From Candidatus Parcubacteria bacterium (GTDB taxonomy: Bacteria > Patescibacteriota > Minisyncoccia > Phycocordibacterales > UBA918), in NCBI GenBank assembly GCA_021731405.1, contig JAKFXN010000002.1, positions 3,151 through 67,150 of the forward strand: 64,000 nucleotides of DNA. The letters are read 5' to 3'. Below, one piece after another: positions 237 to 54,815 of the stretch (positions are counted from its first letter, which is position 1; every line of letters starts with the position of its first letter). The position numbers and the translations under genes are program-made. The notes below the pieces were generated by a model. It had not been told where the DNA came from. It worked only from the letters and a program-made list of their open reading frames with translations, and did not search any database.

Positions 237-306
237 AAAATTACATTGATTACTATACAGAGCAGTATATCACGACGTATCTTTGGGGTGATATACTATT
301 CACTAT

Positions 307-1116: not shown

Positions 1117-1692
1117 CTAGAACAGCAGAGAATGTGTCATGGCACTCTCTTCTTTGATACCCCAGGTACTGATATCAAGCGGAATCTCACGCTTACGTGA
1201 GCCATCCTTAAATTTTACATGTCCGTGTTCTAGAGCATAGTCAAAAACCTTTTTAGTTATTTTGACGTCTTGTTCACAGTATTTTTTAATTTCATCAATT
1301 TTTCCTTCACGCCACCACCTCACTGCTTGCAAGCCGTGGCCAGATTTTTTTGCGCCGACCGTCGCTTCAGCCACACTATCAAGGCGGAGCCGTCTTCCTA
1401 ACGACTTTCTAATTTCTTCCAAGATATCAATACTTTTTATATGAGTTAAATCACCTGGGTAATATTTGTTTAAAAGTGGTATATCAAAGTGATTGCTGTT
1501 ATATCCCACCAGCGCATCTGCTTTTTCTAAAATTGGCCAAACGGTTGAAAGCTCATCAACAGTAACTGTGGTGTATACCTTTGTTTCGCTATCGTAAAAA
1601 GTACCAACAGAAATATCTAAAGCAGCTGGGTCAGAGCTCCCAACATCTTGAAATATGTTTTGTGTTTCTAAATCAAATATTACGTATCGCAT
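1117..1692 (-). CDS. 3'-5' exonuclease, DEDD(y) / RNase H-like superfamily
   Basis: Exo motifs FDLET (I), YNSNHFDIPLL (II), YCEQDV (III). Its start overlaps the hisS stop by 1 nt (TAATG), suggesting translational coupling. Confidence 0.7.
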   Translation of the reverse strand: MRYVIFDLETQNIFQDVGSSDPAALDISVGTFYDSETKVYTTVTVDELSTVWPILEKADALVGYNSNHFDIPLLNKYYPGDLTHIKSIDILEEIRKSLGRRLRLDSVAEATVGAKKSGHGLQAVRWWREGKIDEIKKYCEQDVKITKKVFDYALEHGHVKFKDGSRKREIPLDISTWGIKEESAMTHSLLF

Positions 1693-2969: not shown

Positions 2970-3006
2970 AAAATGATTGTAGTGTAGCGCCTAGCTTCGT
3001 GCAAGC

Positions 3007-3576
3007 CTAATCAAGAACAACGTTATTTACAGTCCCTGAAAGAGTTTGTAGTCGAGCATCGGTGGCTTTCTGGATAGTTGATTGTAGACCACGTGGGTCT
3101 GGTAGGCCATTACTCATGAAGTTACTCTCAGCATCACTGGCAGTTTGAGCGAGGATAGTACCAAAATTAAGAAACGTCGGAATAATTCCGTTGACAGATA
3201 CTTTTATGTCTTGCAGCCGTTCTAGTCTAAAGCTACTTACTTTGCGGTTAAAAAAATGAATTTGATCAACCACAATAATTCTTCGGTCAGTAATAATCCA
3301 AAGGTCCAAATAATAGTGAGTCCACGTCATAAAGGCCGTTAAGATGCAAAAAAGTACCCACGCAGCAGCGGCAAAGGTAGCAAGCGAAGAGTAGTCAGTT
3401 AATTTAAAGCTTATTGGAATAAGTGTTGAAAGTATGGTGAACGATGACAACAGAATAATCGGTAACAGTATCAGCATAAGTATCCCCAAGAGCTCCGCTG
3501 TAATGATAAACCAATGTTTACGCACTACTGTTAGGACAGCCTCACTTGCTTCAAGTTCTATCTTTTCAAATAACAT
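3007..3576 (-). CDS. membrane protein with bacterial PH (YdbT/bPH_2-like) domain
   Basis: Two TM helices followed by YLDLWIITDRRIIVVDQ...FRLERLQDIKV, typical of bPH-domain membrane proteins. Confidence 0.55.
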   Translation of the reverse strand: MLFEKIELEASEAVLTVVRKHWFIITAELLGILMLILLPIILLSSFTILSTLIPISFKLTDYSSLATFAAAAWVLFCILTAFMTWTHYYLDLWIITDRRIIVVDQIHFFNRKVSSFRLERLQDIKVSVNGIIPTFLNFGTILAQTASDAESNFMSNGLPDPRGLQSTIQKATDARLQTLSGTVNNVVLD

Positions 3577-32815: not shown

Positions 32816-35800
32816 ATGTTCAAATTATTTTCTAAGCTCAGTCTAGCCCTCTTTTTACTCGTACCAAGTCTTGGGCTAGCTCAGGTCACGTATCTACCAA
32901 CCATTCCTCAGGCGACCGGCAGTCAAATTGTTGGACTTAATCTGCAAAACCCGACGGGGAGCAGTCTCGTCTCGCAACCTGTGCGTTTTGGACAAACCTT
33001 TTTATCAGGCGCACTTTCTGGTACTTCTGGTATCAGTGCAACAGTGAATGGTGCAGGTGCCCCAGCGCAAATAGATGTTAAGACAAAACACAGTGATGGT
33101 TCAGTGAAGTTTGGTGTCGTGACAGTTATGGCACCAGCACTTTCTGCTAACAGTGCCAACCCAACTCTTCTCTCACCTGCAACAAAAAGTAGTTCTGTCA
33201 TTTCGCTCTCGACAATGCCTAACTACTCCCTCGTTGTTGACATGACTATGTCTGATGGAAAGAAGTATAGCTTCAACGCTGGCACACTTTTAGCTGAGGC
33301 ACTCTCCGCTGGCAAAGTTTCATACTGGAGACAGGGACCGGTTGTGACCGAAGGAAGAATTGAAGTACCAGTAGCATCTTCAATGCGACTGGTGTTTGAT
33401 ATTTCTAAGTATCAAGACGGTTCATACTCAACTGATGTGCACTTCAACAACGATGCAGCGATGACAGCTTCAGGAGATACTCTCACGTATTCAGCTACTA
33501 TTACTCAAAACGGAAAGGTAGCGTATCAGGTGAGCAACCTAGCACATCATCAGTATCAAACCTGGCACACGGTTGTCTATAGCGCAGTAACTCCAGCCAT
33601 CAATCCGCAACTTGATATTCCGTATTTATTGAAAACGAAAGCTGTGCTTAACTTTAATACCACTCACGGGGTCGCCACAAATGCAATATCAGCCGTTACC
33701 TATACTCCGCTCGGTGAAGCGGGAATTGAAACCTACATGCCAATGACAGGTGGTCGAGGTGATATTGGTCCAATCACAAACGTAAATGCTGATTGGCTCC
33801 TCACGCAAGATGTTAAGGCTGCAAAATCAGCTCTCGCACAAGCAGATGCTGCCGGCAGTATCCCTTGGCATTACTACGACCCAACAACAAGTGATTATAT
33901 TTCTCTAGATAAACACCCAAAGCTTTGGGCTGATAGTCGAGGGAATCCAAAACTTACTCAGTTTACAAAAGATTCTGTTTGGAGTATTGATACATCTCAC
34001 CAACCAAACCTTTCGTTCATCCCATACATCTTAACTGGAAACCGTTACCATCTAGATCAAATTAATGCTCAAGCAACCTTCTCAATATTTAATTCTTGGC
34101 CGTATTACCGAAAGGATGGACTCGGATTGATGCTTAATGGGGGCGACCAGACTAGAGGGCAGGCCTGGAGTTTCCGTCAAGTTATTGATGCTGTTTGGGC
34201 AAACCCTGATGACACCACAACAAAGTCTTACTGGAGAAAAGTTGAAGATAACAATCTCCAGTATCTTTTGGATGCACGTTCTGCACGTGAGACTGAGCAG
34301 GGTGAGGCGTATGGATATGCTGCAGGAGCAAACTACGAAACATACATAGCTCCATGGCAGCAAGAGTTTTACTTTAGTGCAGTTGCACTTTCGGCACAGC
34401 GAGGAAATGCCAAGGCAAAAGAAGTAGCAGCGTGGATGTCTAACTTTATTGTCGATCGCTTCAATAAATTGCGTGAACCTCTCTCATCAGTTAACTACCG
34501 ATTCAACCATCGTAATGCAGCCGGTGCGATTGTAAAAACATGGTCTGGACTTTCTGATCAAAATCCTGCTACTCCGGGTAAGGGTTATTATTCACCACTC
34601 GGCCTTGCTTCACTTGCCAATGCATACAATGTCTCAGGATTGCAAAAAGATCTCGACACCTATAATAAGATTAAAGCACTGAACCCTCCTTCAACCAGTA
34701 TTGACGATATGCGTGTGGAGACACAATTCAGTATCGTCCCAGTGGGTTCTGGTGCCGGGGTTATCACACCTGCTCCAACTCCAACACCAACACCAACACC
34801 AACACCAACACCAACACCAACACCTACTCCGACTCCAGTAGTAGCTCCAACCGCTACTCTGACCGCTATTCCAACTTCAATCACCAGTGGTGGCAGTACC
34901 GTAGTGACGTGGTCTTCAACGAACGCTACTACTTGTACTGGGACAAACTTCAGTACTGGTGGAGCTGCTAGTGGAGCAGTGTCTGTAGCGCTTGTAAATA
35001 ATGCCACCTTCACGCTGTCATGTACTGGTGCTGGTGGTTCTGTGACTAAGACTGCAGCAACTACTGTTTCAACGGTTACCTCAACAAAGTTTAAGTCTGG
35101 TGATCGAGTTTCAACAACTGAAAATCTTAACGTACGAACAACTGCTAACACAACAGGAACTTTACTCGGCACACAGTCATTAAGTGCGCTTGGGTTTGTT
35201 GCTGGCGGACCAACAAATGCGAGCGGTTTTAACTGGTGGAACATTAACTTCGATAGTGGTGTTGATGGCTGGGCAGTGGAAGACTATCTTATGAAGTCAA
35301 CGATAGCTGTTCCAACACCTACGCCAACTCCAACACCTACGCCAACTCCAACCCCAGGAACAAAAAGTGTCTGTGTTGATACAATTTGTACATACACAAC
35401 TATCGCCAGTGCATTTGCAGCCGCAAAGAATGGTTCGACTATCACTATTTCAGGTGAATGGACTGCTGGCGGGGCTTTGACAGCAAGTAACGTAACCATC
35501 AAAGGTGATGGTACTGCACACCTCAAGGGTGGTGCTGTACAAGGAAAAGCGATTATTGTGACAAGTGGACAGAGCACCACAATTGAAAATATCGAGTGTT
35601 CAAACGCAACAGTACCAGACGAAAACGGCGCTTGTGTGCGACATCAAGGAAGTGGTCTGACTCTCCGTAATGTAAACTTCCACGATAATCAAAACGGTCT
35701 TCTCGCTAGCCCAGACAGCGGCTCAATCCTAATTGAAGGAAGTACCTTTGAGCGAAATGGATTTAATGGTGGTGGAGGATATGCACACGGAATTTATGTT

Positions 35801-37618
35801 AATGGTGGAAATACTGAACTCACTATTCGAAATTCGAAGTTCTTACGTAGTAAGCTTGGCGGGCACGAGATCAAGAGCCGAGCAGCTAAGACCACAATCG
35901 AAAATACGGTCATTGCTACCATTGACGGAGTTGATAGTCGTAATATCGACATTCCAAATGGGGGACAGGTGATCATTAAAAACAGCGTCATTGAACAAGG
36001 ACCAAGCAGTGAAAATTCAAACTCAATTGGTATTGGGCATGAAGGACTTACACATGCGGTTAATTCAGTTTTACTTGAAAATAACTATATTATTCTCGAA
36101 CGAAGTGGCACAAATGTGATGCTTCAGACACCAGGTATGCCTACTCCAGTAGTGAAGGGTAACACCATTATTGGCGGTACAAATCCTGGCGGTACCAATA
36201 CGTGGTATCAAAGTCGTTCAGCTGCTGGTATTGCTGCCTACCCATACTTGCCAAGTGCAGGTAGTGTACCTATGCCGACTTCCACCCCGACTCCCGTACC
36301 CGAGCCTACCCCAACCCCAACACCTACTCCAACACCTACTCCAACTCCAGTAGTGGCCCCAACTCTCACCCTCACTGCCAGCAAAGCCGCCGTAGCAGCT
36401 CGAGAACGGGTAACTCTTAATTGGTCAGCGCAAAACGCTACCAGCTGTACTTCAGGCAATTTCCTTGTTTCAAGTACCACAGGTTCAAAGGTGGTTCGTC
36501 CAACAAAAAGTACAACGTACACCATGACCTGTACTGGAAAGGGTGGTTCAGTGACACAGAGTGTTGCGGTCACTGTTGGCTCTACGCCAGCACCTACCCC
36601 TGTGCCCGAACCTACCCCAACTCCAGTACCAGAACCAACTCCAACCCCGACACCTACACCTACACCTACACCTACACCTACACCTACCCCAACCCCAGTT
36701 CCTTCAGCTGGTACTATGCCAACCGACTACTTCCTCTACTTGCCATTTGACGGTTCAATTGAAGATAAGGGCTCTGCAAAGAAAACAACTGCCGGTGGAA
36801 GTATTAGTTACCAAACAGGCAAGTACGGACAAGCGGCGTACTTTGATGGCAGTTCACACGTGAGTGTGGAGATGGGAACACTGAAGCCTTCGTACACTGC
36901 TTCGTTTTGGATGAGGCCAGACCAGATTGGTAGTGGAGCATATGGCTCAGCTGTGCATGGCGGTAGATCTGGAGCTTGTGTTGCAACTCCAAACGTAACG
37001 TACACTGGAGCGAACCAGATAGCGGTACATACAACAGGTTGTGATGAATCGACCACTCTCCTTGATGGCTATGCACCAAATACATGGGTGCATGTGGCGG
37101 TGGTTGTTGGTTCTTCAGACCGCAAAATATACATCAATGGAAATCTCGTTGATGACAGACAAAATCTAAGTAACCGCGGCACAGTTAGTTGGGCATGCTT
37201 CTTCATTGGAGCTCTTCAGGTGGGTGAGTGTAAGGCACCTGACAGTCACTTCAAAGGCCTCATCGACGACGTCCGTGTATACAAACGAGTTCTCTCTGCT
37301 AGTGAAATACAAACCCTAGTAGCCAGTGCTCCAACCAAGTCAACGGTCGCTACTATCCCTGCGACAGCAAACAGTTTTGTCCGCGCCGTGAAGATAAACA
37401 CCATCCCGTTTGTCCAAGACCTGGCCGTTATGAGTACCGGAGAAGCGGTCATACAGCTCCAAAAGGTGCTGACCGCACTTGGCTACTTCAAAGAAGAAGC
37501 CACCGGCTACTTTGGACCACTCACTGCCAGTGCTGTCTCAGCCTTCCAGCGTGACAACGGTCTTGAACCAGTTGGAAATGTTGGCCCGAAGACGAGAAGT
37601 GTCCTTAATCTACGGTAA
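32816..37618 (+). CDS. giant secreted multidomain surface protein, paralog 2 (1600 aa), with additional right-handed beta-helix module
   Basis: Nucleotide sequence is near-identical to paralog 1 over the signal peptide and N-terminal domain. Same PT linkers, Ig-like, SH3b, LamG and PG-binding modules. Adds a segment of about 300 aa (TISGEWTAGG...NVNFHDNQNGL...GGGGYAHGIYVNGGNTELTIRNSKF) with pectate-lyase-like beta-helix repeats. Confidence 0.85.
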   Translation: MFKLFSKLSLALFLLVPSLGLAQVTYLPTIPQATGSQIVGLNLQNPTGSSLVSQPVRFGQTFLSGALSGTSGISATVNGAGAPAQIDVKTKHSDGSVKFGVVTVMAPALSANSANPTLLSPATKSSSVISLSTMPNYSLVVDMTMSDGKKYSFNAGTLLAEALSAGKVSYWRQGPVVTEGRIEVPVASSMRLVFDISKYQDGSYSTDVHFNNDAAMTASGDTLTYSATITQNGKVAYQVSNLAHHQYQTWHTVVYSAVTPAINPQLDIPYLLKTKAVLNFNTTHGVATNAISAVTYTPLGEAGIETYMPMTGGRGDIGPITNVNADWLLTQDVKAAKSALAQADAAGSIPWHYYDPTTSDYISLDKHPKLWADSRGNPKLTQFTKDSVWSIDTSHQPNLSFIPYILTGNRYHLDQINAQATFSIFNSWPYYRKDGLGLMLNGGDQTRGQAWSFRQVIDAVWANPDDTTTKSYWRKVEDNNLQYLLDARSARETEQGEAYGYAAGANYETYIAPWQQEFYFSAVALSAQRGNAKAKEVAAWMSNFIVDRFNKLREPLSSVNYRFNHRNAAGAIVKTWSGLSDQNPATPGKGYYSPLGLASLANAYNVSGLQKDLDTYNKIKALNPPSTSIDDMRVETQFSIVPVGSGAGVITPAPTPTPTPTPTPTPTPTPTPTPVVAPTATLTAIPTSITSGGSTVVTWSSTNATTCTGTNFSTGGAASGAVSVALVNNATFTLSCTGAGGSVTKTAATTVSTVTSTKFKSGDRVSTTENLNVRTTANTTGTLLGTQSLSALGFVAGGPTNASGFNWWNINFDSGVDGWAVEDYLMKSTIAVPTPTPTPTPTPTPTPGTKSVCVDTICTYTTIASAFAAAKNGSTITISGEWTAGGALTASNVTIKGDGTAHLKGGAVQGKAIIVTSGQSTTIENIECSNATVPDENGACVRHQGSGLTLRNVNFHDNQNGLLASPDSGSILIEGSTFERNGFNGGGGYAHGIYVNGGNTELTIRNSKFLRSKLGGHEIKSRAAKTTIENTVIATIDGVDSRNIDIPNGGQVIIKNSVIEQGPSSENSNSIGIGHEGLTHAVNSVLLENNYIILERSGTNVMLQTPGMPTPVVKGNTIIGGTNPGGTNTWYQSRSAAGIAAYPYLPSAGSVPMPTSTPTPVPEPTPTPTPTPTPTPTPVVAPTLTLTASKAAVAARERVTLNWSAQNATSCTSGNFLVSSTTGSKVVRPTKSTTYTMTCTGKGGSVTQSVAVTVGSTPAPTPVPEPTPTPVPEPTPTPTPTPTPTPTPTPTPTPVPSAGTMPTDYFLYLPFDGSIEDKGSAKKTTAGGSISYQTGKYGQAAYFDGSSHVSVEMGTLKPSYTASFWMRPDQIGSGAYGSAVHGGRSGACVATPNVTYTGANQIAVHTTGCDESTTLLDGYAPNTWVHVAVVVGSSDRKIYINGNLVDDRQNLSNRGTVSWACFFIGALQVGECKAPDSHFKGLIDDVRVYKRVLSASEIQTLVASAPTKSTVATIPATANSFVRAVKINTIPFVQDLAVMSTGEAVIQLQKVLTALGYFKEEATGYFGPLTASAVSAFQRDNGLEPVGNVGPKTRSVLNLR
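34781..34825 (+). repeat. perfect hexanucleotide tandem repeat (CCAACA)x7 encoding a PT linker
   Basis: Read directly from the sequence. Lies in frame within paralog 2. Confidence 0.9.
36649..36688 (+). repeat. perfect hexanucleotide tandem repeat (CACCTA)x6 encoding a PT linker
   Basis: Read directly from the sequence. Lies in frame within paralog 2. Confidence 0.9.
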
Positions 37619-41270: not shown

Positions 41271-41342
41271 CGCTCCCCGGGCAGGATTCGAACCTGCGAC
41301 CAATTGATTAACAGTCAACTGCTCTACCGCTGAGCTACCGAG
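41271..41342 (-). tRNA. tRNA-Asn: tRNA-Asn (anticodon GTT)
   Basis: Hand-folded 72-nt cloverleaf: acceptor stem UCCUCGG/CCGGGGA, D-arm GCUC-AGCGGUA-GAGC, anticodon stem GUUGA/UCAAU with loop CUGUUAA, T-arm GCAGG-UUCGAAU-CCUGC. CCA is not encoded. Confidence 0.8.
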
Positions 41343-41496
41343 GAAGGTATTTTTATCATTATTTAAGGCTGTTTTGGCCTTTATTTCTTGATAGTGGTCA
41401 TATTGTACAGAAATATGGTTAATATTCAACTAGGGGAGTAATACACAGGTGAGCTTTGGTAGGAGACGTAGTATACTTAATGAGTTAAAAGGTTAA

Positions 41497-43868: not shown

Positions 43869-45764
43869 TTACACAATTCGGTTTGGGTCAATTTCAATGC
43901 GTATAAAAGGAGGGAGGTTCTTTAACGTTCGAACAAACTCAACCCTATTTTTAGCTTTACTATCGACCTTAAACAGGGCATGTCGCAGTATCTTAGCATC
44001 AGTTGAGCTGGGGTTGCTGTAATAGCTCCCTACAAATGGCTCAGTCATTTTTTTGATTTGTCCCTCTACTTCAAGGACGGTTGTTTTTTCTCCAACCCAG
44101 CTCAGGAGTACAAAACAGCAGAAAGGCGGATATGAAAGTGTTTCGCGAAGCTCAATTTCTTCGTTATAAAATACTTCCAAACTACCATGGATGGCATTTT
44201 GGAGTACCGAGTCAGGAGTGGTCCTTGTTTGGACTAAGACTTGCTGCGAACTCAGTTCGCGCAGTTGTAAAAGTAACCGAAACACATTTTCGTCAGCTCG
44301 CCAGGTAGGATTTGAGCGAGTAGCATCAAGTGAAATAATGGCACTCAGGTCTACTCCTTGCAGAGTCAGGTATGGAATAGCCATCTGGGTACCTACGAGG
44401 ATAGCTCCACGGGTAGTGTAAAAATCATCAATAATCTTTTTGGCTTTTTTCCGTGTTGACCCAGTGACGTGGTCTAACAGAAAAACGCGATGATCTTTAA
44501 AGTGTAAGACGGCTTCGTCGTAGACCTGTTGTATACCAATACCGCGTGGGCGAAGGCGCCACGAACCGCAGTCGGGACAAGTGTCTGCTGCTCGTATCTT
44601 TTTCCCCGAAGTACTTGAAACAAACCACCGTTCCTCGTTGCCTGTCTTTGAGACTGTTTTAACTAAAGAGTACGGGGTCTCGGAGTCAGGGCAGCGAAAA
44701 ATGTACCCACAATCAATGCACGTAACAACAGGTGCAATACCTCTACGAGCACCATACATATAGACTCTGCCTTTGGCATCAAGTACATTTTGCGCCCGAG
44801 CTTTAAGTTCTTTTGAAAAGAGAGAAAAAGGAGCTTCGGGGGTAGATTTATCATGCTGTTCAATGATGGTGAGTGGGGAAGCAAAAGAGATGCGCTTAGT
44901 TTCTTCGTTGTAGGTGCTAAATTGCTCGGCTCGACGTTTATACTCATCTTCAGTTTTTGGTAAGATGTCACCGAGCAAAATACTCCGCCCTGTTACTTTG
45001 GCGTAGGTTTCAAGTACAACACGGTGGTCGAGATATGGTCTGTTTGGGCTGCGATAAAAATCCGAGGCAGAGTTTTCAATGATTATCGAAAGTAAATCAA
45101 CTCTATCAAGATAGGCGTGTGAGGGGGTGGTGATGATAAGTTTGGCGAGACTGGTGTCTTCATATGAAGCGTACGCTTTTTGTCGCTGTGATTTTACCTG
45201 TGCTGGGGAAAATACCACCACCCTATCTTCAATCCCTTGTGACAGGTGTTTCTGTGCATACTCAACGTCAGCACTTGTGGGTACCACAAATACTACAGAG
45301 CCGCGGCGTGCAAGCACTCCTCGGATATGGCTCCGATAGGCAACGTACCTATCTTTCATCGCTGCAGTCAGTAGTTGTGGAATAGTGTCTTCATTGTGAA
45401 CGAGTGAGGAGACCAGTGGATACAGGTATTGTCCTGTTCGAACATCAGTCGGAAGGAGTTGATACAAAATGGCTCCGATAGACGCTGGATACACTTCTGT
45501 TAATTTTGTGGCCGTGTCGCTGATGTTTTTTGGGACGGCGGTATTTGGTGTTTGCTCTGGTAGTTTACGTAAGGTAAAAGAAGCGTTTTTAAGTGAAGTT
45601 TTGTTGTGGGCAACCGGTGTCACTTCTGTCACCACCGCTTTGTGTTCTTTGCCGCGAATTGGGATTGAAAGGAAGGAGCCGATTCCGTACTCCACACTAC
45701 TAAAGTAAGATAACGTGTCGATTTTAGTGCCACGAATAAGTGGAATAACCTGAATGACAAACAT
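43869..45764 (-). CDS. priA: primosomal protein N' (replication restart helicase)
   Basis: N-terminal 3' DNA-binding domain, a superfamily-2 helicase core, and the PriA Cys-rich zinc region CIDCGYIF...CPDCGS. Confidence 0.85.
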   Translation of the reverse strand: MFVIQVIPLIRGTKIDTLSYFSSVEYGIGSFLSIPIRGKEHKAVVTEVTPVAHNKTSLKNASFTLRKLPEQTPNTAVPKNISDTATKLTEVYPASIGAILYQLLPTDVRTGQYLYPLVSSLVHNEDTIPQLLTAAMKDRYVAYRSHIRGVLARRGSVVFVVPTSADVEYAQKHLSQGIEDRVVVFSPAQVKSQRQKAYASYEDTSLAKLIITTPSHAYLDRVDLLSIIIENSASDFYRSPNRPYLDHRVVLETYAKVTGRSILLGDILPKTEDEYKRRAEQFSTYNEETKRISFASPLTIIEQHDKSTPEAPFSLFSKELKARAQNVLDAKGRVYMYGARRGIAPVVTCIDCGYIFRCPDSETPYSLVKTVSKTGNEERWFVSSTSGKKIRAADTCPDCGSWRLRPRGIGIQQVYDEAVLHFKDHRVFLLDHVTGSTRKKAKKIIDDFYTTRGAILVGTQMAIPYLTLQGVDLSAIISLDATRSNPTWRADENVFRLLLQLRELSSQQVLVQTRTTPDSVLQNAIHGSLEVFYNEEIELRETLSYPPFCCFVLLSWVGEKTTVLEVEGQIKKMTEPFVGSYYSNPSSTDAKILRHALFKVDSKAKNRVEFVRTLKNLPPFIRIEIDPNRIV

Positions 45765-45838: not shown

Positions 45839-47338
45839 CTAGAATTCGTCGAGATAAGACACTTTGGCACCAATAGACGAGAGGCGTTCTATGAGTTTTT
45901 CGTAGCCTCGGTTAATACTGTAGATATTGCGAAGAACGCTCTGTCCAGAAGCCGCTAACATGGCGATGAGAAGGATAGTAGCTGGCCGTAAAGCTGGTGG
46001 GCAGATAAGCTCAGTCGCTTTTAGGGCAGTAGGACCGGTGATGTAGATGCGGTGCGGGTCTGCCAAAACTGTCTCAGCACCAAGCTTGTCTAGTTCAGTA
46101 AAATAAATTGCTCGCTTTTCGTATACCCAGTCGTGGATAAGCGTTTGTCCCTCAGCTTGAGTGGCTATGACCGCAAAGAAAGGGAGGTTGTCGATATTGA
46201 GCCCTGGGTACACTGAAGGATGAATTTTTTCATGGAGGGCCTTAAGTTCAGATGGTTTGGTGGTAATATCGACAAGCTTAGTGACTCCATTGTGACTGAA
46301 ATACGGTTTAGATTTTTTGTATTGGAAACCCATCTTTTCTAACTTCAAAAGCTCAAGCTCCAAAAATTCAATCGGACAACGAGTAATGGTGATAGAAGAT
46401 TTGGTCACAATCGCAGCGGCCAAGAAAAACATACTGTCGGTAGGATCTTCTGACAGAGTGTAGGCAACATCTTGGTTAATTTCTGGGAGACCAGTCACGG
46501 TAAGAGTTGTGGTACCAACTCCTTCTATTTGTACCCCAAGTAGTTGAAGGAAAGTACAAACTTCTTGCACCATGTAGTTGGCGGAGGCGTATTTAATAAC
46601 AGTTGTCTTCGGATTTTTGGCTGCCGCAAAAAGAGTGTTTTCTGTCACCGTGTCACCAGACTCGTAGAGAATAATTTCTTCGGGAGAAGTAAAGGTTGTC
46701 TTTACTTCATACGCTTTGTCGGTCGTTTTAATATCAACACCAAAGTTTTGTAATGCATAGAAGTGTGGCATGACGGTTCGACTACCGAGTTTGCATCCAC
46801 CTGACTGTGGGAGACTAAAAGAATTAATCAGATGTATGAGTGGTCCGATAAACATCACAATACTACGAGTTTTTTTGGCAGCCTCAACATCAATTTTATT
46901 AAGGGTAAACTTTTTTGGCGGGGTGATAACCACGCTGTTTGCTTTCCACTCTACTCGCACGCCGATACTTTCGAGTACTTCAATAATTCGATGCACTTCT
47001 TCAATCCGTGGCATGCGATGGAGTGTTGTAGTGCCACGGTTGAGCAAGCTGGCACAGAGAAGCCCAACTGCACCGTTTTTAGAGGTATTTGTCTCGATAG
47101 TTCCCGATAGTTTTTTGCCTCCCTCTATCTGGATATTTACCGTACCAGGGGAGAGGGTAATGAGGTTTTTACCGAGTGCTTGTCCGATGCGTTTTAGCAT
47201 GTCGGCACTCACGTTTTGTTTACCAGACTCAATCCGGGCAATAGCGCTTTGTGTTGTCTTTAATTTTTTTGCTAGGTCAGCCTGAGTAATCCCTTTGGTC
47301 TCGCGCATGTCTGCGATACGGTGTCCGATATTTTGCAT
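45839..47338 (-). CDS. murA: UDP-N-acetylglucosamine 1-carboxyvinyltransferase with N-terminal XRE-family HTH domain
   Basis: Residues 1-60 are an XRE-type HTH (GITQADLAKKLKTTQSAIARIESGKQNVS). These are followed by MurA (GGKKLSGTIETNTSKNGAVGLLCASLL; catalytic-Cys region GGCKLGSR). 499 aa against about 420 for canonical MurA. Confidence 0.85.
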   Translation of the reverse strand: MQNIGHRIADMRETKGITQADLAKKLKTTQSAIARIESGKQNVSADMLKRIGQALGKNLITLSPGTVNIQIEGGKKLSGTIETNTSKNGAVGLLCASLLNRGTTTLHRMPRIEEVHRIIEVLESIGVRVEWKANSVVITPPKKFTLNKIDVEAAKKTRSIVMFIGPLIHLINSFSLPQSGGCKLGSRTVMPHFYALQNFGVDIKTTDKAYEVKTTFTSPEEIILYESGDTVTENTLFAAAKNPKTTVIKYASANYMVQEVCTFLQLLGVQIEGVGTTTLTVTGLPEINQDVAYTLSEDPTDSMFFLAAAIVTKSSITITRCPIEFLELELLKLEKMGFQYKKSKPYFSHNGVTKLVDITTKPSELKALHEKIHPSVYPGLNIDNLPFFAVIATQAEGQTLIHDWVYEKRAIYFTELDKLGAETVLADPHRIYITGPTALKATELICPPALRPATILLIAMLAASGQSVLRNIYSINRGYEKLIERLSSIGAKVSYLDEF

Positions 47339-47417
47339 AATAAACCCAGTATAGCATAGATGCTATACACTAGCCCTTTATTGATTTGTGGAAAAAGAGT
47401 AGTATGTAGGGACATAT

Positions 47418-48434
47418 ATGTTTTGGGATAACCTCACACCAAAGATTGGTATCGACTTAGGTACTACAAGCATCTTGGTGTTTGTGCCAGGGCAAGGCAT
47501 TGTTCTCAATGAGCCTTCCGTTGTTGCAGTATCAGATGACAATCAAGTCTTGGCTGTTGGTGCGGAAGCAAAGCGAATGATTGGACGCACACCAGATAGT
47601 ATTCGCGCTTATCGTCCCATGAAAGACGGAGTTATCGCTGATTACCGCGTGACTGAGGTAATGCTTAGATACTTTTTGCGAAAGGCTCTCAGCCGTTACA
47701 ATATTTTTAAACCAGATGTGATGGTCTCGGTGCCTGCCGGAGTGACATCGACCGAACGACGTGCGGTAGTTGAGGCGACTATTAAAGCGGGCGCGCGAAA
47801 CGCCTATGTGGTGAAAGAACCAATTTTGGCAGCTATTGGCGCCGGGGTACCTATTTATGAACCGCAGGGACACATGATTGTTGATATTGGCGGCGGCACC
47901 ATTGACGTAGCGGTTATTTCTCTTGGCGGTATTGTGGCGGCAAACTCAGTAAAATGTGCAGGTAACCGCATAGACGCGTCGATTATTGATTATGTAAAAA
48001 AGACTCGGAACCTTTCAATTGGCGAGAAGACCGCTGAAGAAATTAAAATAACCGTTGGTTCAGCCTTGCCACTTGAGGAAGAACTTATGATGGAGATTAA
48101 AGGGCGTGATGTGCTTTCTGGATTACCTCGTACTACCGAAATCAGAACCAATGAAGTAGTGCGAGCAATTGGGCGAGAACTCCGAGAAATGGTCAAAGCT
48201 ATTAAAGACGTTTTCCAAGAAACACCACCTGAGCTCGCGGCTGATATTATTGATGGCGGCATTATTATGACAGGCGGAACTTCACAGCTCCGAAATTTTC
48301 CAGAGCTCGTGCGGCGTCGCTCGGGGGTAAAAGCTCATCTGGCAGACCAGGCACTTTTTTGTGTAGCGACCGGTACCGGTATTGCACTTGAGCATCTGGA
48401 TGTCTACAAACGCACTGTTTTGGCCAAGCGCTAA
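47418..48434 (+). CDS. mreB: rod shape-determining protein MreB (paralog 1)
   Basis: Actin-fold phosphate-1 IGIDLGTT, DIGGGTID and adenosine motifs. 338 aa. Confidence 0.9.
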   Translation: MFWDNLTPKIGIDLGTTSILVFVPGQGIVLNEPSVVAVSDDNQVLAVGAEAKRMIGRTPDSIRAYRPMKDGVIADYRVTEVMLRYFLRKALSRYNIFKPDVMVSVPAGVTSTERRAVVEATIKAGARNAYVVKEPILAAIGAGVPIYEPQGHMIVDIGGGTIDVAVISLGGIVAANSVKCAGNRIDASIIDYVKKTRNLSIGEKTAEEIKITVGSALPLEEELMMEIKGRDVLSGLPRTTEIRTNEVVRAIGRELREMVKAIKDVFQETPPELAADIIDGGIIMTGGTSQLRNFPELVRRRSGVKAHLADQALFCVATGTGIALEHLDVYKRTVLAKR

Positions 48435-48522: not shown

Positions 48523-51285
48523 ATGACAGAAGGTGTACCAAAACAATTCTCTTCCCCCGAGGAAGAGCTTGTGTATTTACGGCAACAAATCGCAGACCGC
48601 GAACGCGAATTATTGATGCGAAATCCTGAGACAGATGGAGCGGACACTGAGACTATCGGTCGCCAAGAAATCAAAGAGTACGCGACTTTTACGCCGCAAG
48701 TCATCTTGGCACGGGAACACGCCCTTGATCCCCATACTCTGGCTGCATCTGTCGAGCAGGTAGCTATTTCGCATGACCCAGTGGCCGATATTATGAAAGT
48801 GGCTACGGAAAAAGGTATTCGTAATGCTCTTTCAGTGCTTGAAAAAGTAAATAACGCTTACGTGATAGATGAGGTGCATCGTCAGCTGGTTGAATACATT
48901 AGTGCAGGAGCATCCTTTCAAGATTTAAAAGAAGGTATGGCTCCGTGGCATGTGCTCCATATGACCTTGTATGAAGTTACTCTGCCGGAAGTCACAGCTG
49001 TAGCTAGTAAAGAATATCAGCTGGCTGAGCTTGTTGGGATGATGGAGCAGTTGTTTGCTGGGTTACGCACTATCGGCTCACAGCAGGCAAATAATCACTT
49101 TGTAATTGAGATTGCTGTGGCAGACAACAGTGATGATATTGTATTTTACGTTGCTGTACCAAATCAGTTTGTGACGCTGTTTGAGAAGCAGACACTTTCC
49201 CTGTTCCCATTTGCTGAACTGACCGTAAAGTCACATGACTACAATATCTTTGTGGATGGGGGCACCACCCTTGTTTCTGAAGTCGCTCTAACCAAGCATC
49301 CTATTTATCCGCTGCGTACACATGAAGCGTTTACCTCAGATCCGCTTGCTGTCTTACTAAACGCTTTTTCTAAAATTGAACGTGAGGGTGGGGGAGCAGC
49401 AATACAGTTTGTGATGCGTCACCCTGTTCGCCAGTACCGTAAAGACTACGAGGGTATTATCAAAAATATCCAAAAAGGGATGAAGGCTTCGGAGGCTATC
49501 TCTCGTAGTACAGTAAGCGGCAGCCTCATTGCCGGTGTGAGTGATCTGTTTTCATCAAAAAAGAAAGACGCTATGGAGGAGCCAAAAACAATTGATTCAG
49601 AGAAAATTGAAATCTTTTCACGCAAAATTAAGACAGACATTATTGAGACCAATATTAGGATTGCTGTTTCAGCTAAAGAGCCACGCCGAGCGGAGCAAAT
49701 CCTGACCGAAATTGAATCCACCCTCAATCAATTTGGTGCCGTTGATGGAAATGCTTTTACTTTCAAACACAGTAAAGGAAGCGGCCTTCCAGCGATGCAA
49801 AAATCTTTTGCGTTTCGGGACTTTTCTGCAAAGGCAGCTCTTCCGCTTTCTCTCTCAGAACTCTCAGTCCTCATTCATTTCCCAAGTAACGGTATCTTAA
49901 GCTCACCACAGTTTAAACAGTCACAATCTGTAACTGCTCCAGCCCCACTCGATATGCCGACAGCAGGAACAATCTTGGGTGTAAATAAACATCGCAACGT
50001 CGAGACTCCTATCTATATGACAGAACTCGACCGAATGCGGCACCTCTACATCATCGGACAGACCGGTACGGGTAAGTCTAAGTTTATGACTAACACCATC
50101 ATCCAAGACATTCAGCAGGGAAATGGTGTTTGTATGATTGACCCGCACGGAACCGACATAGAAGAGGTGCTGGGTGCAATCCCTCCTGAGCGTGCCAAAG
50201 ATGTTATTTATTTTGACCCTTCACAAATGGATAATGTGGTAGGACTCAATATGCTTGAGTACGACGAAACAAAACCTGAACAAAAGACCTTTGTGGTCAA
50301 TGAGCTTTTTTCTATTTTCCAAAAACTCTATGGTGCCAATCCAGAGAGTATGGGGCCGATGTTTGAGCAATATTTTAGAAATGCCACTATGCTCGTGATG
50401 GAAGATCCAGAGAGTGGCAATACGCTCATGGATATCTCACGTGTGATGGTGGACGCACAATATCGTCGTTATAAACTTTCAAAAGCCAAGAATCCCGTTG
50501 TTGTCCAATTTTGGACAGAGATAGCTACCAAAGCAGGTGGGGAAGCAGCGCTTGAAAATATCGTACCGTATATTGTATCTAAGTTTGATGTTTTTACCGC
50601 CAATGACTACATGCGTCCGATTATCGGGCAGCAAAAATCTGCCTTCAATTTTAGACAAGTGATGGATGAAAGAAAGATTCTGTTGGTGAATCTTTCAAAG
50701 GGGCGGCTAGGTGAAATTAATGCCAACCTCATCGGTATGATTGTAGTTGGAAAGATTTTAATGGCAGCGCTCTCTCGGGTGGATGATCCGACGCGAAGCT
50801 TTCCTCCATTTTATTTACATATAGACGAATTCCAAAACGTTTCAACTCCAGCTATTGCATCAATTCTCTCTGAGGCACGGAAGTACAAACTCAGTCTGAC
50901 TGTCGTACACCAGTTTATTGCGCAGCTGGATCAAAATATAAAAGAGGCGGTATTTGGAAACGTTGGCTCCATAGTGTCGTTCCGAGTTGGTACTGAAGAT
51001 GCACAATTTTTGGAGCAGCAATTTGCCCCAGTCTTTTCAGCTAAAGACATTATGAATGTGCCAAACTATAATGCCTTTTTGCGCATTTTGGTAAATGGTG
51101 TGCCAACTAAGCCGTTTAGTATGGCAACAATGCCGCCTATTGTTTCTGACCCAGCTCGTGTGGCAGCTATTATTCAGGAAAGCGCGCTGCGTCATGGTCG
51201 TCCGCGAGCGGAAGTGGAAGCAGAGATAGCAGCGCGTTATGTTAAGAAGCCAGCGGCTGCTGGAGCAGCAGGCAGTATACTGTAA
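48523..51285 (+). CDS. large P-loop NTPase of the FtsK/HerA/VirB4-VirD4 (AAA_10-like) superfamily, soluble N-terminal 470-aa region
   Basis: Walker A IIGQTGTGKSKF and Walker B FYLHIDEFQNV. The following ARKYKLSLTVVHQFIAQLDQNIKEAVFGNVGSIVSFRVG block resembles the conserved C-terminal core of conjugative coupling/VirB4-type ATPases. No N-terminal TM helices. Confidence 0.6.
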   Translation: MTEGVPKQFSSPEEELVYLRQQIADRERELLMRNPETDGADTETIGRQEIKEYATFTPQVILAREHALDPHTLAASVEQVAISHDPVADIMKVATEKGIRNALSVLEKVNNAYVIDEVHRQLVEYISAGASFQDLKEGMAPWHVLHMTLYEVTLPEVTAVASKEYQLAELVGMMEQLFAGLRTIGSQQANNHFVIEIAVADNSDDIVFYVAVPNQFVTLFEKQTLSLFPFAELTVKSHDYNIFVDGGTTLVSEVALTKHPIYPLRTHEAFTSDPLAVLLNAFSKIEREGGGAAIQFVMRHPVRQYRKDYEGIIKNIQKGMKASEAISRSTVSGSLIAGVSDLFSSKKKDAMEEPKTIDSEKIEIFSRKIKTDIIETNIRIAVSAKEPRRAEQILTEIESTLNQFGAVDGNAFTFKHSKGSGLPAMQKSFAFRDFSAKAALPLSLSELSVLIHFPSNGILSSPQFKQSQSVTAPAPLDMPTAGTILGVNKHRNVETPIYMTELDRMRHLYIIGQTGTGKSKFMTNTIIQDIQQGNGVCMIDPHGTDIEEVLGAIPPERAKDVIYFDPSQMDNVVGLNMLEYDETKPEQKTFVVNELFSIFQKLYGANPESMGPMFEQYFRNATMLVMEDPESGNTLMDISRVMVDAQYRRYKLSKAKNPVVVQFWTEIATKAGGEAALENIVPYIVSKFDVFTANDYMRPIIGQQKSAFNFRQVMDERKILLVNLSKGRLGEINANLIGMIVVGKILMAALSRVDDPTRSFPPFYLHIDEFQNVSTPAIASILSEARKYKLSLTVVHQFIAQLDQNIKEAVFGNVGSIVSFRVGTEDAQFLEQQFAPVFSAKDIMNVPNYNAFLRILVNGVPTKPFSMATMPPIVSDPARVAAIIQESALRHGRPRAEVEAEIAARYVKKPAAAGAAGSIL

Positions 51286-51293
51286 TTACTACT

Positions 51294-54200
51294 ATGAGTT
51301 CTGAACGACCTACTACAACTAATACCCTTGAGACTGGTCAAATAATCAGGATATTCGAACAGACACAAAGTCTAAAGCTTACTCATGAGGCGGAGCACTC
51401 AGTCATGCAGAGTGCAGCCGACAAACTCAAAGAGGAGGGAGTGTTTAACACACACAAAGAGCTTTTTGTTGCGGCTTGGGGCTTACATGAACAGATTACT
51501 AGAGGTCTGAATGAGCTCATCGTCGCTGAAAAAAATAAAACACTGAGCCCCTATCACGTCAGACTTCTTCGTGATGTCGAAAATACAGATATAGAATTTG
51601 CTGCCATAAAAAACGAGGTTATAAAAATATTGACTACTCTGGGGTATGAAGAACAAGAGGTTCCTGAAAACCAAACAGCTCTAGAATCCGAGGCTCCTGC
51701 CGCGACTAATGAGGTGGCAATTGAAGTGGGTGCTAGTTCAGAACCAGAAATGTCCGAGGTAGCACTTGCTACGGAGGTGCAAGAAAATAATCCGTCGGAA
51801 ATAGCCAAACTAACAGAACTATATCGACTTGCCGATATTAGTGCGTTTAGAATAAATCCGAGCGAAAATAGAATTCAATATAAAACGTTTGATGTTATTG
51901 AAAGTGATATACAGGGCGTGCTTACTAATGCTGGTTTCAATAGTGGAATGGTCTTAGTCTTTATGAATGAGGCGGTGAATCGCCTTAAACATGAAATCAA
52001 TGAATTGCTACAGCGGCAAGCAGCAGAAAGTAACTCAGACGAGAAACAAAGATTGCGAGCAATAGTCACAGAGAAGTACCAGGAGATATTAACAGCTGTC
52101 GCTGGCTTCATGTTAACGGAAAAGGTAGACGAGGCAGAAGGGTTGGTTGATAGCGAGCTTCCAACCGAAGGTCTCGATAATCTTGATGACGCAATAGAGT
52201 CCACGCTTCAAGAGTTCGCTACTTTGGAACAAAGTGGTCTTTACACTGATAACGATACTGCTTTTAAGAAAGCGGCTGTTGCTGCTGGGAGACTGCAATC
52301 ATATACAGAAACGGATGAGGTCAGGGCGTCACACGACAAAGAGCGTTACTTACGCAAACTACAGGCTGCCTTGGCAGAAATCAAAGGTCAGACAGAAGAC
52401 AATGTCCCTGAAGTAATCCTTACCGACACGACAGCCCCTGAAATTGCAATGGAAGTAGCAGAGCGAGCCATTCTTGATGAAGCTGTTGCTGAGCCGGTCG
52501 TCGTGACTCCTGAATTCGCTAATCTTGAACCAGTAGAAGAAGTTTCACTCAAAAATCCAGGAGTGCTCTCTGTTGAGGAAGTGGCAGGAAAAAAGAAACA
52601 CGAAGCGCTGTTTGAAGTAAAGAGTGAATATAAAGAAAAACAGCAAGCCTACAAAGAGGCCTTAGCTGATTTTTACGAAGAGCAAAAAAGTAACGCCACA
52701 ATACAGTCACAAATCGGAGCGGGATTTAGAAAAATAACTGGCCTGGGCCTGAGTCCAGAACTCCCTCCAGCGATTTTAGCGTTGCAAAATGAATACAAGC
52801 AGTTACGGGCCGTCTACGCTGAGTCATTAAACCAAGCTCTTATCGAGCGTTCACAAAGAGAGGGAAACAGAGAACATAGTCTTGCTTCTGATGGAGCTAA
52901 GATTGCTTTTGGTAAGAAGTTTATTTTAAAACCAAATCAAGAGATAGTGGCGCTGCAAGAAACCGCCATACTGTCACCAGAAGTGAAAGAAAGGCTTGGT
53001 CGAGTGATGGAGTTGATGGCTAAACATAAGTGGGCCGCGAGAATTGGTATTGTGGCCGCAGCCGGTATTGTTGGTGGGCTAAGTGGTGGAGCAGGATTCG
53101 TGTTGGCTGGTGCTGGGGCCGCTAGTTTCCAGGCCTCTAAGATGGCTCTTTCTGCTGTCGCTGGTGCGGGTGCTGGGTACGGAGCAAATAGGCTGACCCA
53201 AGGTGGGGTAGATAAAGCCTCAGCTAATTTTGATACTACAAGCAAGGGGTTCACACTAGCTGATCTAGATGCGTTTGAGACAGAGCTCATTAGTGCCGAG
53301 TCGAACCTTCGGTCAGCCAAAACGAGACAAAAAGTCGCTACGATTGGCGCAGCTGTGTTGGCGGGAGGCACAACTGGGTACAGTCTCGCATCTGTTGATG
53401 TAGATAGTTTTTTGCCGGGGAATAGGGAAGGGTTAAGCAAGGAAGCGGTCGACAGAATAGTGGCTGATGAAATCGCTGCTTCTGGAGTCGTGGATTCAAA
53501 TAATCCTACAGCTGATTCTTCTCCCGTATCAACTGAACAGAAAGTCGAAGCAATACCAGAAATACCTGGTTTTAAGATTGAGACATTTACTATTCCGTAC
53601 TACGGATTTTCTAGTGGTGGAGAAACTTTTGAGACAGTAATAGCTAACACAAAAATTGAGGGAGCGTTTAGTACTGGTCCATTACCTGAAGCGAACAGGC
53701 TTGAACTCATAAAAGAAATAAAACTCAGTATGGATGGTTCGCTCTATGCTCATCCAAGCATACCAGAAGGTAAACTTGAAGCGGAGGTATTAAGCAAGGT
53801 GCAGGCGAAGTTCGCGGATGCTCCTTGGTACAGAGAAGCTGGAATAACCAAAATCAATATCGGGCATATGTACAACCAGGAATATACAATGCCTGGGTTA
53901 GAGCCTGTGGAGGTGTCTGAAAAAATAATAACCGGCGCGTCTCAAGAAAAAATTGGTTCAACCTATGTTGTACAAAAGGGAGACACTCTTTCTGAAATAA
54001 CTGAAAAAAGATTCGCAGAGCAATTGAAAGACATTCCAGCCAATAAGCGGGGAGTTCTTTTGGACGAATTATTTAGAAACATTCAAGCAGATGCTGACTT
54101 GCGTGGTTCTCTCGGTATTCGAAGTGGGGATGTCGATTTAATTTACCCAAATGAAAAACTAAATCTCGACGGTGTTGAAGCTGAACTAACGAGGCTCGTA

Positions 54201-54815
54201 GAGCGAGAACAGATACTGGAAAATTTCCGTACCTCCGGTCCGCTTTCAGTGGAGGCTGATGCTGACGTAAAAAATGTTCCTATTACAGTGGTTGAAAAAC
54301 CAGTACCAGCGACAGTAGATGTAACTGCTGATAGCGGAAGGGTGTACAAAGAAGCGGTACCAACACCTGTTCCAAAACCGGTTGAGCTAGTGGCTCCACG
54401 ACCGTACTCTCTAAATGGACAGTTCGCTGATACGCCTGCTTACAAAGAGTACCTGCAAAAAGTTTTTGGTACAGCGAAACTTATGGAGCGCGCTGTTGAA
54501 ACCGCAGCTACCAACTTTGATAAGACTACCTACGACATTTTTGAAAGCTTTGGTACTTACTACGAAAGCCCGTATCGTTTTCTTGGGGACATGACACTCC
54601 AGCAGGTAACGGAGTTTGAGACTCAGCCAAATGATCAAATCAGAGCTTTTTTGAATGATAATAAAATCAAGTACGAAACGTATTTGGCTTGGTTAGATAA
54701 AATAGATGAGATGGCTAAGGCTTTACCAAATCAAAGTGAGACCAGAGTGTCAGATCTCTTTACTCGGTATGTTGCGGAAACACAGTCATTGCGTCCTAAT
54801 TCATTGTTAAAATAA
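51294..54815 (+). CDS. large (1173 aa) envelope protein: acidic coiled-coil N-terminus, Gly/Ala-zipper membrane segment, LysM-like domain
   Basis: Starts 9 nt after the ATPase gene. The hydrophobic stretch IGIVAAAGIVGGLSGGAGFVLAGAGAAS is present. The LysM-like stretch is YVVQKGDTLSEITEKRF...IYPNEKLNL. Confidence 0.55.
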   Translation: MSSERPTTTNTLETGQIIRIFEQTQSLKLTHEAEHSVMQSAADKLKEEGVFNTHKELFVAAWGLHEQITRGLNELIVAEKNKTLSPYHVRLLRDVENTDIEFAAIKNEVIKILTTLGYEEQEVPENQTALESEAPAATNEVAIEVGASSEPEMSEVALATEVQENNPSEIAKLTELYRLADISAFRINPSENRIQYKTFDVIESDIQGVLTNAGFNSGMVLVFMNEAVNRLKHEINELLQRQAAESNSDEKQRLRAIVTEKYQEILTAVAGFMLTEKVDEAEGLVDSELPTEGLDNLDDAIESTLQEFATLEQSGLYTDNDTAFKKAAVAAGRLQSYTETDEVRASHDKERYLRKLQAALAEIKGQTEDNVPEVILTDTTAPEIAMEVAERAILDEAVAEPVVVTPEFANLEPVEEVSLKNPGVLSVEEVAGKKKHEALFEVKSEYKEKQQAYKEALADFYEEQKSNATIQSQIGAGFRKITGLGLSPELPPAILALQNEYKQLRAVYAESLNQALIERSQREGNREHSLASDGAKIAFGKKFILKPNQEIVALQETAILSPEVKERLGRVMELMAKHKWAARIGIVAAAGIVGGLSGGAGFVLAGAGAASFQASKMALSAVAGAGAGYGANRLTQGGVDKASANFDTTSKGFTLADLDAFETELISAESNLRSAKTRQKVATIGAAVLAGGTTGYSLASVDVDSFLPGNREGLSKEAVDRIVADEIAASGVVDSNNPTADSSPVSTEQKVEAIPEIPGFKIETFTIPYYGFSSGGETFETVIANTKIEGAFSTGPLPEANRLELIKEIKLSMDGSLYAHPSIPEGKLEAEVLSKVQAKFADAPWYREAGITKINIGHMYNQEYTMPGLEPVEVSEKIITGASQEKIGSTYVVQKGDTLSEITEKRFAEQLKDIPANKRGVLLDELFRNIQADADLRGSLGIRSGDVDLIYPNEKLNLDGVEAELTRLVEREQILENFRTSGPLSVEADADVKNVPITVVEKPVPATVDVTADSGRVYKEAVPTPVPKPVELVAPRPYSLNGQFADTPAYKEYLQKVFGTAKLMERAVETAATNFDKTTYDIFESFGTYYESPYRFLGDMTLQQVTEFETQPNDQIRAFLNDNKIKYETYLAWLDKIDEMAKALPNQSETRVSDLFTRYVAETQSLRPNSLLK

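Follow-up and report, generated by a model that had tools for sequence, protein, structure and literature searches.

Can an enzyme of cell wall synthesis carry the repressor of its own gene? The question is raised by a gene lying at 45839..47338 on the minus strand of a 64,000-nt stretch of DNA (contig JAKFXN010000002.1 of assembly GCA_021731405.1, Candidatus Parcubacteria bacterium), referred to below as the window, whose numbering is used throughout. The gene encodes a protein of 499 amino acids (aa) in which a helix-turn-helix (HTH) domain of the XRE type precedes a complete MurA, the UDP-GlcNAc enolpyruvyl transferase. MurA is the gateway to peptidoglycan synthesis, of which it catalyses the first committed step, and the target of fosfomycin. 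The controls known to act on it are mostly post-translational and include proteolysis through ClpCP/ReoM in Firmicutes and UDP-MurNAc feedback. A preliminary description of the window had taken the fusion either as a sign of autoregulation or as a start artefact. The comparisons reported here dispose of the artefact and make it likely, though not certain, that the protein is a bifunctional trigger enzyme, a MurA whose XRE-type HTH would bind a palindrome in its own promoter and exert negative autoregulation.

A MurA fused to a helix-turn-helix domain

The open reading frame (ORF) starts with ATG and comprises 499 codons and a stop; protein P0001 in public data is 100% identical to its product. 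Two Pfam profiles match the whole protein, HTH_3 at aa 8-59 (E 1e-13, 51.5 bits) and EPSP_synthase at aa 72-486 (E 1.8e-44). The AlphaFold2 model, calculated from a 60-sequence alignment, has a predicted local distance difference test score (pLDDT) of 93 and a predicted template-modelling score (pTM) of 0.85, and consists of four N-terminal helices, a short linker and a MurA fold. One ORF thus holds an XRE/Cro-C1-type HTH (aa 1-60, 47159..47338, minus strand), a linker (aa 61-67, 47138..47158, minus strand) and a MurA domain (aa 68-499, 45842..47137, minus strand). The linker is conserved in sequence (77% identity across orthologues) and modelled as flexible, with pLDDT <50 at aa 62-64. The peptide quoted in the preliminary description, ITQADLAKKLKTTQSAIARIESG, corresponds to aa 17-39.

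The same fusion is found in related genomes, where the preliminary description had proposed to look for it. In a scan of one genome per GTDB species, a relative of HTH-MurA is encoded in at least 346 genomes, and 395 metagenome stretches with the fusion were confirmed. Among the matches listed, both Pfam domains are present in more than 120 protein clusters (81-97% identity), whose lengths of 499-536 aa fall almost always within 499-506. Locus comparisons were made on the best 80 loci of the 346 genomes, which encode proteins 73-91% identical to that of the window and belong to metagenome-assembled genomes of Paceibacteria, Parcubacteria, Kaiserbacteria and Nomurabacteria. The ATG stands at the same position in most of these loci. 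Orthologues starting at an internal Met after the HTH, which had been named as the sign of an artefact, are not what they show: the alignment begins at query residues 1-3 in 79 of the 80, and the remaining locus is truncated where its contig stops.

An annotation, assembly or frameshift artefact, a split gene or a true start located after the HTH can accordingly be ruled out, on the evidence of the orthologues, of the codon pattern and of the lack of a usable internal start; the probability left to this explanation is negligible. Its one favourable point is the absence of a Shine-Dalgarno (SD) sequence before the ATG, a feature that is general in the window (see below). Against it, the identical in-frame architecture recurs in independent assemblies from NCBI, JGI, ENA and Logan. 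From codon 2 to codon 115, start codons in frame occur only at positions 11, 43, 47, 98, 109 and 115. Codons 48 to 97 include no ATG, GTG or TTG, and initiation inside the gene could therefore not produce an intact MurA lacking the HTH. Moreover, among the 47 gap-free orthologues, each of exactly 499 aa, the HTH and the MurA domain have ratios of third- to first- and second-codon-position differences of 3.7 and 3.8, and amino-acid identities of 77.5% and 79%, respectively. These figures point to purifying selection on the HTH, at the codon level, similar to that on the enzyme. The start artefact offered as an alternative in the preliminary description is refuted by this equal codon pattern and by the ATG shared among hundreds of orthologues. 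The fusion is the normal form of the gene in the Patescibacteria (Candidate Phyla Radiation, CPR) genome from which the window derives.

Taken in isolation, the N-terminal domain scores 54.7 bits with HTH_3 (PF01381, cut-off 23), matches the 434 repressor at E 4.9e-5 and is modelled with high confidence as helices at aa 2-14, 19-26, 30-37 and 45-55. The predicted recognition helix, T28-T-Q-S-A-I-A-R-I-E37 (47228..47257, minus strand), aligns with T26-T27-Q28-Q29-S-I-E-Q33 of the 434 repressor: TTQSAIARIE of the window protein stands opposite TTQQSIEQLE, the TTQQSIEQ part of which reads the 434 operator. In this alignment Q30 and R35 fall at base-contacting positions, and none of T28, T29, Q30, S31, A34 and R35 varies in the 47 orthologues. 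The domain thus appears to be an HTH of the DNA-binding type. The Xre/Cro-like HTH recognized in the preliminary description at aa 1-60 is upheld by the HTH_3 score, the 434 repressor match and the modelled helices, to which the codon-position pattern can be added.

The C-terminal domain, although divergent, has the residues and the fold of MurA. It exceeds the cut-off of the NCBIfam MurA subfamily model NF006873 (309 bits, cut-off 297) and falls below that of NF009470 (210 bits, cut-off 552). In a Foldseek search with the model, MurA accounts for all of the top 43 matches, NikO and AroA ranking lower, and MurA crystal structures are matched at target-normalised TM of 0.9-0.95. Residues K22, N23, R91, C115, R120, D305, R371 and R397 of E. 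coli MurA (reference sequence verified as identical to PDB 1UAE) are all conserved, as K87, N88, R158, C182, R187, D383, R451 and R477. The catalytic loop (46769..46813, minus strand) reads GGC182KLGSR187, in which Cys182 is the active-site Cys (E. coli Cys115) and Arg187 corresponds to Arg120. The equivalents of C115 and R120 and the other checked catalytic or binding residues are invariant in 80/80 members of the clade and in 79/80 metagenome relatives, which suggests, together with the modelled fold, a catalytically competent MurA. The in-frame junction of the HTH with a complete MurA, as first described, is likewise borne out by Pfam, NF006873 and the Cys182 alignment. MurA domains of the fusion family are 24-28% identical to canonical MurA of related CPR genomes, 34-38% to a catalytically dead branch and 59% to the non-fused relative P0122, and form a distinct subfamily.

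The palindrome upstream of the fused gene

The divergent neighbour of the fused gene is mreB (47418..48434, plus strand; Pfam MreB_Mbl, E 4e-128). The 79-bp intergenic region shared by the two genes holds an 18-bp palindrome, TATAGCAT-ct-ATGCTATA (47350..47367), which is a candidate operator conserved upstream of the fused gene. Its core, ATAGCA-N4-TGCTAT (47351-47366), has one exact copy in the 64-kb window; 60 of the 80 GTDB loci likewise have a single copy each, always upstream of the fused gene. With at most one mismatch (ATAGC[A/G]N4TGCTAT) it is found upstream in all 79 loci having upstream DNA. In a position matrix of these 79 loci, positions 1-5 (ATAGC) and 12-16 (GCTAT) are invariant, against about 0-0.3 bits in the flanks. 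The centres of the half-sites are separated by 10 bp, a spacing of one helical turn that suits a dimeric HTH. XRE regulators typically autoregulate via palindromes upstream of their own genes, to which they bind as dimers (PMC12565409). No regulon is apparent in the window, which contains a single exact site; the site with two mismatches at 661-676 is no more than chance would give (2 sites against 2.8 expected).

The palindrome ends 9-14 nt before the ATG in 65 of the 79 loci, and the distance from its centre to the murA ATG is 17-22 nt in most loci. An extended -10 promoter element, TGCTATACT (TGCTATAcT, 47348..47356, minus strand), lies partly inside its right arm and partly next to it, and ends 9 nt before the ATG. 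The symmetry of the palindrome is broken at this side: position +1 is A in 72/79 loci and +3 is T in 75/79, and the mirror position -3 is not conserved, so the extended -10 motif TGCTATAnT would point toward murA. The -10 hexamer ends 6-11 nt (mode 8-9) before the ATG in the 65 loci. From this position, within the right arm and so close to the start codon, a leaderless or near-leaderless mRNA is predicted, with transcription starting at or near the ATG. A promoter scan found no classical -35/-10 promoter in 47200-47560, which fits an extended -10 promoter without a -35 element.

A few loci (L016, L041, L052, L064 at 2853-3001, L069 at 1920-2190, and L072) have the palindrome further away, 115-254 nt ahead of the ATG. 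In L064 and L069 a distinct -10-like box (TACTAT) adjoins the start, and the palindrome is instead about 64 nt from mreB. Such loci may have two promoters, or a regulation that has been re-targeted.

Leaderless starts would not be peculiar to the fused gene. Within 40 nt upstream of the 38 ORFs of the window (1-64000), an SD-like motif, even a weak one, precedes only four, and all four are weak. A TAnnnT hexamer ends 5-11 nt before the start codon of 17/38 ORFs, compared with 6/38 at control offsets, and 7 of these 17 boxes are of the extended -10 type (TGn extension). Examples are the boxes of def (TGCTATAAT, 7 nt before the ATG at 43832) and of a 631-aa ORF downstream of the fused gene (TGTTACAAT, 8 nt before the ATG at 45764). 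On this distribution, genes of this Patescibacteria genome would as a rule be transcribed into leaderless mRNAs. The preliminary description was correct in that no SD precedes the HTH-MurA ATG, but this is not peculiar to the gene: the SD is missing there because leaderless-type gene starts appear to be common in the genome.

The identity of the divergent neighbour varies with the clade. It is mreB in 77 of the 80 GTDB loci; mreB is nearby in 19 of 80 more distant loci, and murB, the gene of the next enzyme of the pathway after MurA, is the divergent partner in 17 metagenome loci. According to the clade, the palindrome sits in the divergent intergenic region shared with mreB, murB or a canonical murA. 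A fixed spacing between operator and mreB, considered as possible evidence of co-regulation, finds no support, the distance ranging from 47 to >1000 nt.

The more distant comparison set was drawn from the metagenome scan and consists of 80 further fused genes whose products are 54-67% identical to the window protein, and one more at 35%; start codons in these loci were chosen heuristically. A 6-N4-6 palindrome of the form AT..CA-N4-TG..AT lies upstream in 76/80, and three of the four exceptions are contigs ending early. The arms of this palindrome appear to follow the recognition helix. Where the helix carries TTQS (12 proteins), the left arm is ATAGC in all 12 and the right arm GCTAT in 11, with one hybrid. 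Where it carries TSQS (68 proteins), the palindrome is of the ATATCA/TGATAT type in 62, was not found in 4, and has G at half-site position 4 in none. One TSQSS protein is paired with ATACCA/TGGTAT. In the clade of the window, Thr29 and ATAGC occur together in all 79 genomes with upstream DNA. Relatives at 32-54% identity conform to this pattern, the corresponding sequences being ATATCATATATGATAT for P0131 and P0133, ATATCAGATATGATAT for P0218 and ATCTCATATGTGAGAT for P0121. Thr or Ser at residue 29 thus covaries with G or T at operator position 4. A neighbour-joining tree built on the MurA domain only places most TTQS proteins in one clade; L150 (TTQS, ATAGCACATGTGCTAT) is nested among TSQS/ATATCA loci, and L154 stands apart. 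This topology suggests that helix and operator have switched as a pair at least twice, L150, and partly L154, being independent of the main TTQS clade.

Loss of the HTH is accompanied by loss of the palindrome. P0122, P0123, P0125 and P0126 are nested in the fused clade, their HTH is absent or degenerate, and no such palindrome is found within 250 nt in any of the four. The P0122 locus keeps the divergent mreB and the TGCTATACT box, that is, the -10 half only, the left arm having decayed. A tRNA-like gene, recognized by eye, lies immediately upstream of murA in the loci of P0123 and P0125 (L171, about 2380-2500; L172, about 430-547), where the ancestral promoter/operator region may have been replaced. 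Taken together, the HTH type, the covariation and the joint loss support recognition of the palindrome by the HTH, as far as comparative tests can indicate.

The P0121 locus (L084, 3972-5530; GCA_018603905.1, JAHFZZ010000002.1) belongs to a high-GC organism, so that the fusion is not confined to low-GC Paceibacteria. The encoded HTH-MurA is catalytically intact (54% identity), the palindrome variant ATCTCATATGTGAGAT lies 13 nt before its ATG, and the locus adjoins a phage-type integrase and a small HTH gene.

Proposed autoregulation and its alternatives

It is proposed that HTH-MurA binds, presumably as a dimer, the sequence (T)ATAGCA-N4-TGCTAT(A) over its own extended -10 box. Since the palindrome covers the -10 element near the transcript start, its occupancy should block RNA polymerase at a promoter whose transcript would start at, or a few nt from, the ATG. 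The outcome would be repression of the gene's own leaderless transcript and, hence, negative autoregulation of the first committed peptidoglycan step. Since it shares the intergenic region, the divergent mreB may be influenced as well, although this is speculative. MurA has an open/closed transition and binds UDP-MurNAc tightly; it can be speculated that such ligand-dependent states (UDP-GlcNAc, PEP, UDP-MurNAc) modulate DNA binding. The comparisons above establish the fusion and its conservation, the operator-like palindrome with its position, the covariation of protein and DNA, and the intact catalytic residues; from them we infer DNA binding, dimerisation, repression rather than activation, and a leaderless transcription start. 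The autoregulation suggested in the preliminary description gains strong support, at the level of sequence comparison, from the conserved palindrome over the gene's own -10 element, the helix covariation, the joint loss and the divergent intergenic placement.

An alternative, which seems unlikely although it is the strongest of the competitors, is that the protein is primarily a transcription factor, in which the MurA-like domain serves as a ligand sensor and the real MurA is encoded elsewhere in the genome. The divergence of the window MurA domain from textbook MurA would be compatible with this, the genome having been inspected over 64 kb only, and a related branch of proteins provides a precedent. 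The Cys115/Arg120 loop is lost in seven divergent representatives (P0131, P0133, P0138, P0144, P0147, P0218 and P0230) and in L091. These HTH-pseudoMurA proteins keep the architecture and the helix motif TSQSA.ARIE, and most of the loci read have a 6-N4-6 palindrome just upstream of the start. In all four pseudoenzyme loci with enough flanking DNA (those of P0131, P0133 and P0138, and L091), a canonical murA (438-452 aa) is divergently adjacent, the palindrome lies in the intergenic region shared with it, and murB, ddl or Mur ligase genes are nearby. This arrangement is seen at L081 1624-4503, L085 95-5003, L087 2558-5530 and L091 about 300-3130. This branch probably represents an undescribed family of dedicated peptidoglycan-gene repressors with a MurA-derived sensor.

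The same relatives argue against extending the transcription-factor explanation to the window protein. The eight catalytic and binding residues are invariant in 159/160 members outside the pseudoenzyme branch and decayed wherever a second MurA is present. Searches by tblastn found no second MurA in the 64-kb window or the 80 GTDB loci (queries: E. coli MurA and three canonical CPR MurA), nor beside any catalytic fusion in the 80 metagenome loci (two canonical sequences). More generally, no second EPSP-synthase-family gene is present in the window or within about 3 kb at 159 catalytic-fusion loci. Furthermore, murB is divergent in the 17 loci mentioned above, and P0122, P0123 and P0125, which are not fused, resemble normal MurA enzymes that stand alone. 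On the most economical interpretation, the chemistry has been kept where the fusion is the cell's MurA, presumably its only one, and lost where another MurA exists.

The frequent presence of mreB, divergent in 77/80 loci and nearby in 19/80 of the distant ones, could suggest a different role for the HTH, that of a protein-protein module tethering MurA to MreB filaments. RodZ binds MreB through an XRE-like HTH, and shares with HTH-MurA both this domain and a functional or genomic link to MreB. Such a role is nevertheless quite improbable. The RodZ-type profile HTH_25 reaches only 17.3 bits, under its cut-off of 24.6, against the 54.7 bits of HTH_3, and aa 68-499 are entirely occupied by the MurA fold, leaving no room for the transmembrane and periplasmic segment of a RodZ. 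Moreover, tethering would explain neither the invariant palindrome nor the helix covariation and joint loss; HTH and palindrome persist where the neighbour is murB or a canonical murA; and it is the distance from palindrome to murA that is fixed, that to mreB being variable. It is slightly less probable still that the palindrome forms a hairpin in RNA or DNA, such as a terminator, an attenuator or a 5' stem-loop of the mRNA, and has nothing to do with the HTH. A simple scan did return a terminator-like call for the minus strand (8 pairs, tail containing T); a G-U pair would survive in murA-sense RNA where left-arm position 6 has changed from A to G, as in 17 loci; and arm changes between clades are two-sided. 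However, the tail is neither T-rich nor conserved in the other loci (about 0.1 bits at +4 to +10), which rules out an intrinsic terminator, only 3 pairs are G-C, and there is no upstream gene on the minus strand to terminate. Within the clade of the window the arms are invariant in sequence rather than covarying, and arm sequence tracks a protein residue. The Rfam scan of the whole window at gathering thresholds found no known RNA element in the intergenic region. Finally, with the -10 box located within the right arm, the murA mRNA should lack most of the palindrome.

Several observations also weigh against autoregulation by a catalytically active MurA. Canonical MurA (E. coli/E. cloacae, PDB 1UAE and 1NAW; C. 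jejuni, 5UJS) has in common with the window protein the two-domain fold, the Cys115 loop and the catalytic residues, but the latter differs, besides its N-terminal HTH and its membership of a distinct subfamily, in an identity to E. coli MurA of only 24-28%, in the replacement of D369 by Ala and in a score below the cut-off of the TIGR01072 equivalog (301 bits, cut-off 392.7). MurA enzymes are generally monomeric, and dimeric binding is proposed here. About 14 of the 79 loci have the palindrome 26-254 nt from the ATG, so it does not overlap the proximal promoter everywhere. Most of the evidence for covariation comes from one large clade, the remainder from two or three smaller events in a rough neighbour-joining tree, in which long-branch effects are likely for the pseudoenzymes.

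Known systems and neighbouring genes

Negative autoregulation by HTH-MurA would have functional parallels among known trigger enzymes. PutA (a ribbon-helix-helix with proline dehydrogenase/P5C dehydrogenase), BirA (a winged HTH with biotin ligase) and NadR (an HTH with NMN adenylyltransferase/ribosylnicotinamide kinase) likewise combine an enzyme and a DNA-binding domain in one polypeptide. In these proteins a pathway is controlled by its own enzyme, and the likeness would extend to an operator, predicted in the case of HTH-MurA, at the promoter of the enzyme's own or pathway genes. The comparison is one of function, not of sequence homology: HTH-MurA differs in the enzyme (MurA), in the class of HTH (XRE/Cro-C1), in the host lineage (Patescibacteria) and in that its predicted operator overlaps a leaderless-type extended -10 promoter; moreover, its ligand switch is speculative. 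With the 434 repressor/Cro and the XRE autoregulators, the protein has in common the HTH_3 domain, a similar recognition helix, a palindrome upstream of its own gene and half-sites one helical turn apart. However, its C-terminal partner is a 430-aa enzyme, not a small dimerisation or sensor domain, and ATAGCA-N4-TGCTAT is unlike the 434 operators. The HTH-pseudoMurA relatives have the same architecture and differ from the window protein by the loss of Cys115/Arg120 and, in four cases, by the separate murA alongside.

HTH-MurA proteins are already present in public databases, where they are labelled simply as MurA. No paper on the fusion, its operator or the pseudoenzyme branch was found in the full text of open-access papers and in bioRxiv preprints. 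In a broader and distinctly more tentative proposal, which may well go too far, HTH-MurA would be the first representative of a class of trigger enzymes not yet described but widespread in Patescibacteria, gripping its own leaderless promoter and the divergent mreB/murB promoters more or less tightly according to the UDP-sugar/PEP state of its catalytic domain, and would act as the main transcriptional controller of wall synthesis. If autoregulation is confirmed, a MurA carrying its own repressor domain and operator would represent a new and very compact control of flux into the cell wall, and would be among the first concrete cis/trans regulatory pairs for the Patescibacteria, which are uncultured, regulator-poor and, to judge by the window, mostly reliant on leaderless mRNAs. 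The family would then preserve a series leading from a non-fused enzyme to a bifunctional enzyme-repressor and to a dead MurA-derived repressor of a separate murA-murB operon, a natural series of an enzyme turning into a transcription factor. The predicted specificity code (Thr/Ser29 versus G/T at operator position 4) is testable, and the operator motif could serve to map a regulon across CPR genomes.

The genes surrounding the fused gene are partly conserved. Directly after mreB, a 920-aa ORF (48523-51285, plus strand) has weak matches to HerA/DUF87 and to T4SS-DNA_transf, the profile of type IV secretion coupling proteins. It is syntenic in 55/80 loci and may belong to the type IV secretion or competence machinery of Patescibacteria. 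It is followed by a 1173-aa ORF (51294-54815, plus strand) with no Pfam match. Downstream of murA, the 631-aa ORF (43869-45764, minus strand) is PriA-like by eye, with Cys-rich CxxC pairs, and gave no Pfam match at E <= 1e-5. It is syntenic in 72/80 loci, with identities of 42-78% as against 73-91% for MurA and 71-98% for MreB, and is followed by def and fmt.

Two minor features of the window lie further away. Adjacent very large ORFs of 1256 and 1600 aa are located at 28891-32661 and 32816-37618 (both plus strand), and Rfam, at gathering threshold, matches nothing in the window but a single tRNA gene at 41273-41344 (minus strand). One of the pseudoenzyme loci has, downstream of the regulator, a gene (L081, 4493-6082) for a 529-aa protein in which D-Ala-D-Ala ligase domains and a Peptidase_C39_2 match occur in an unusual combination.

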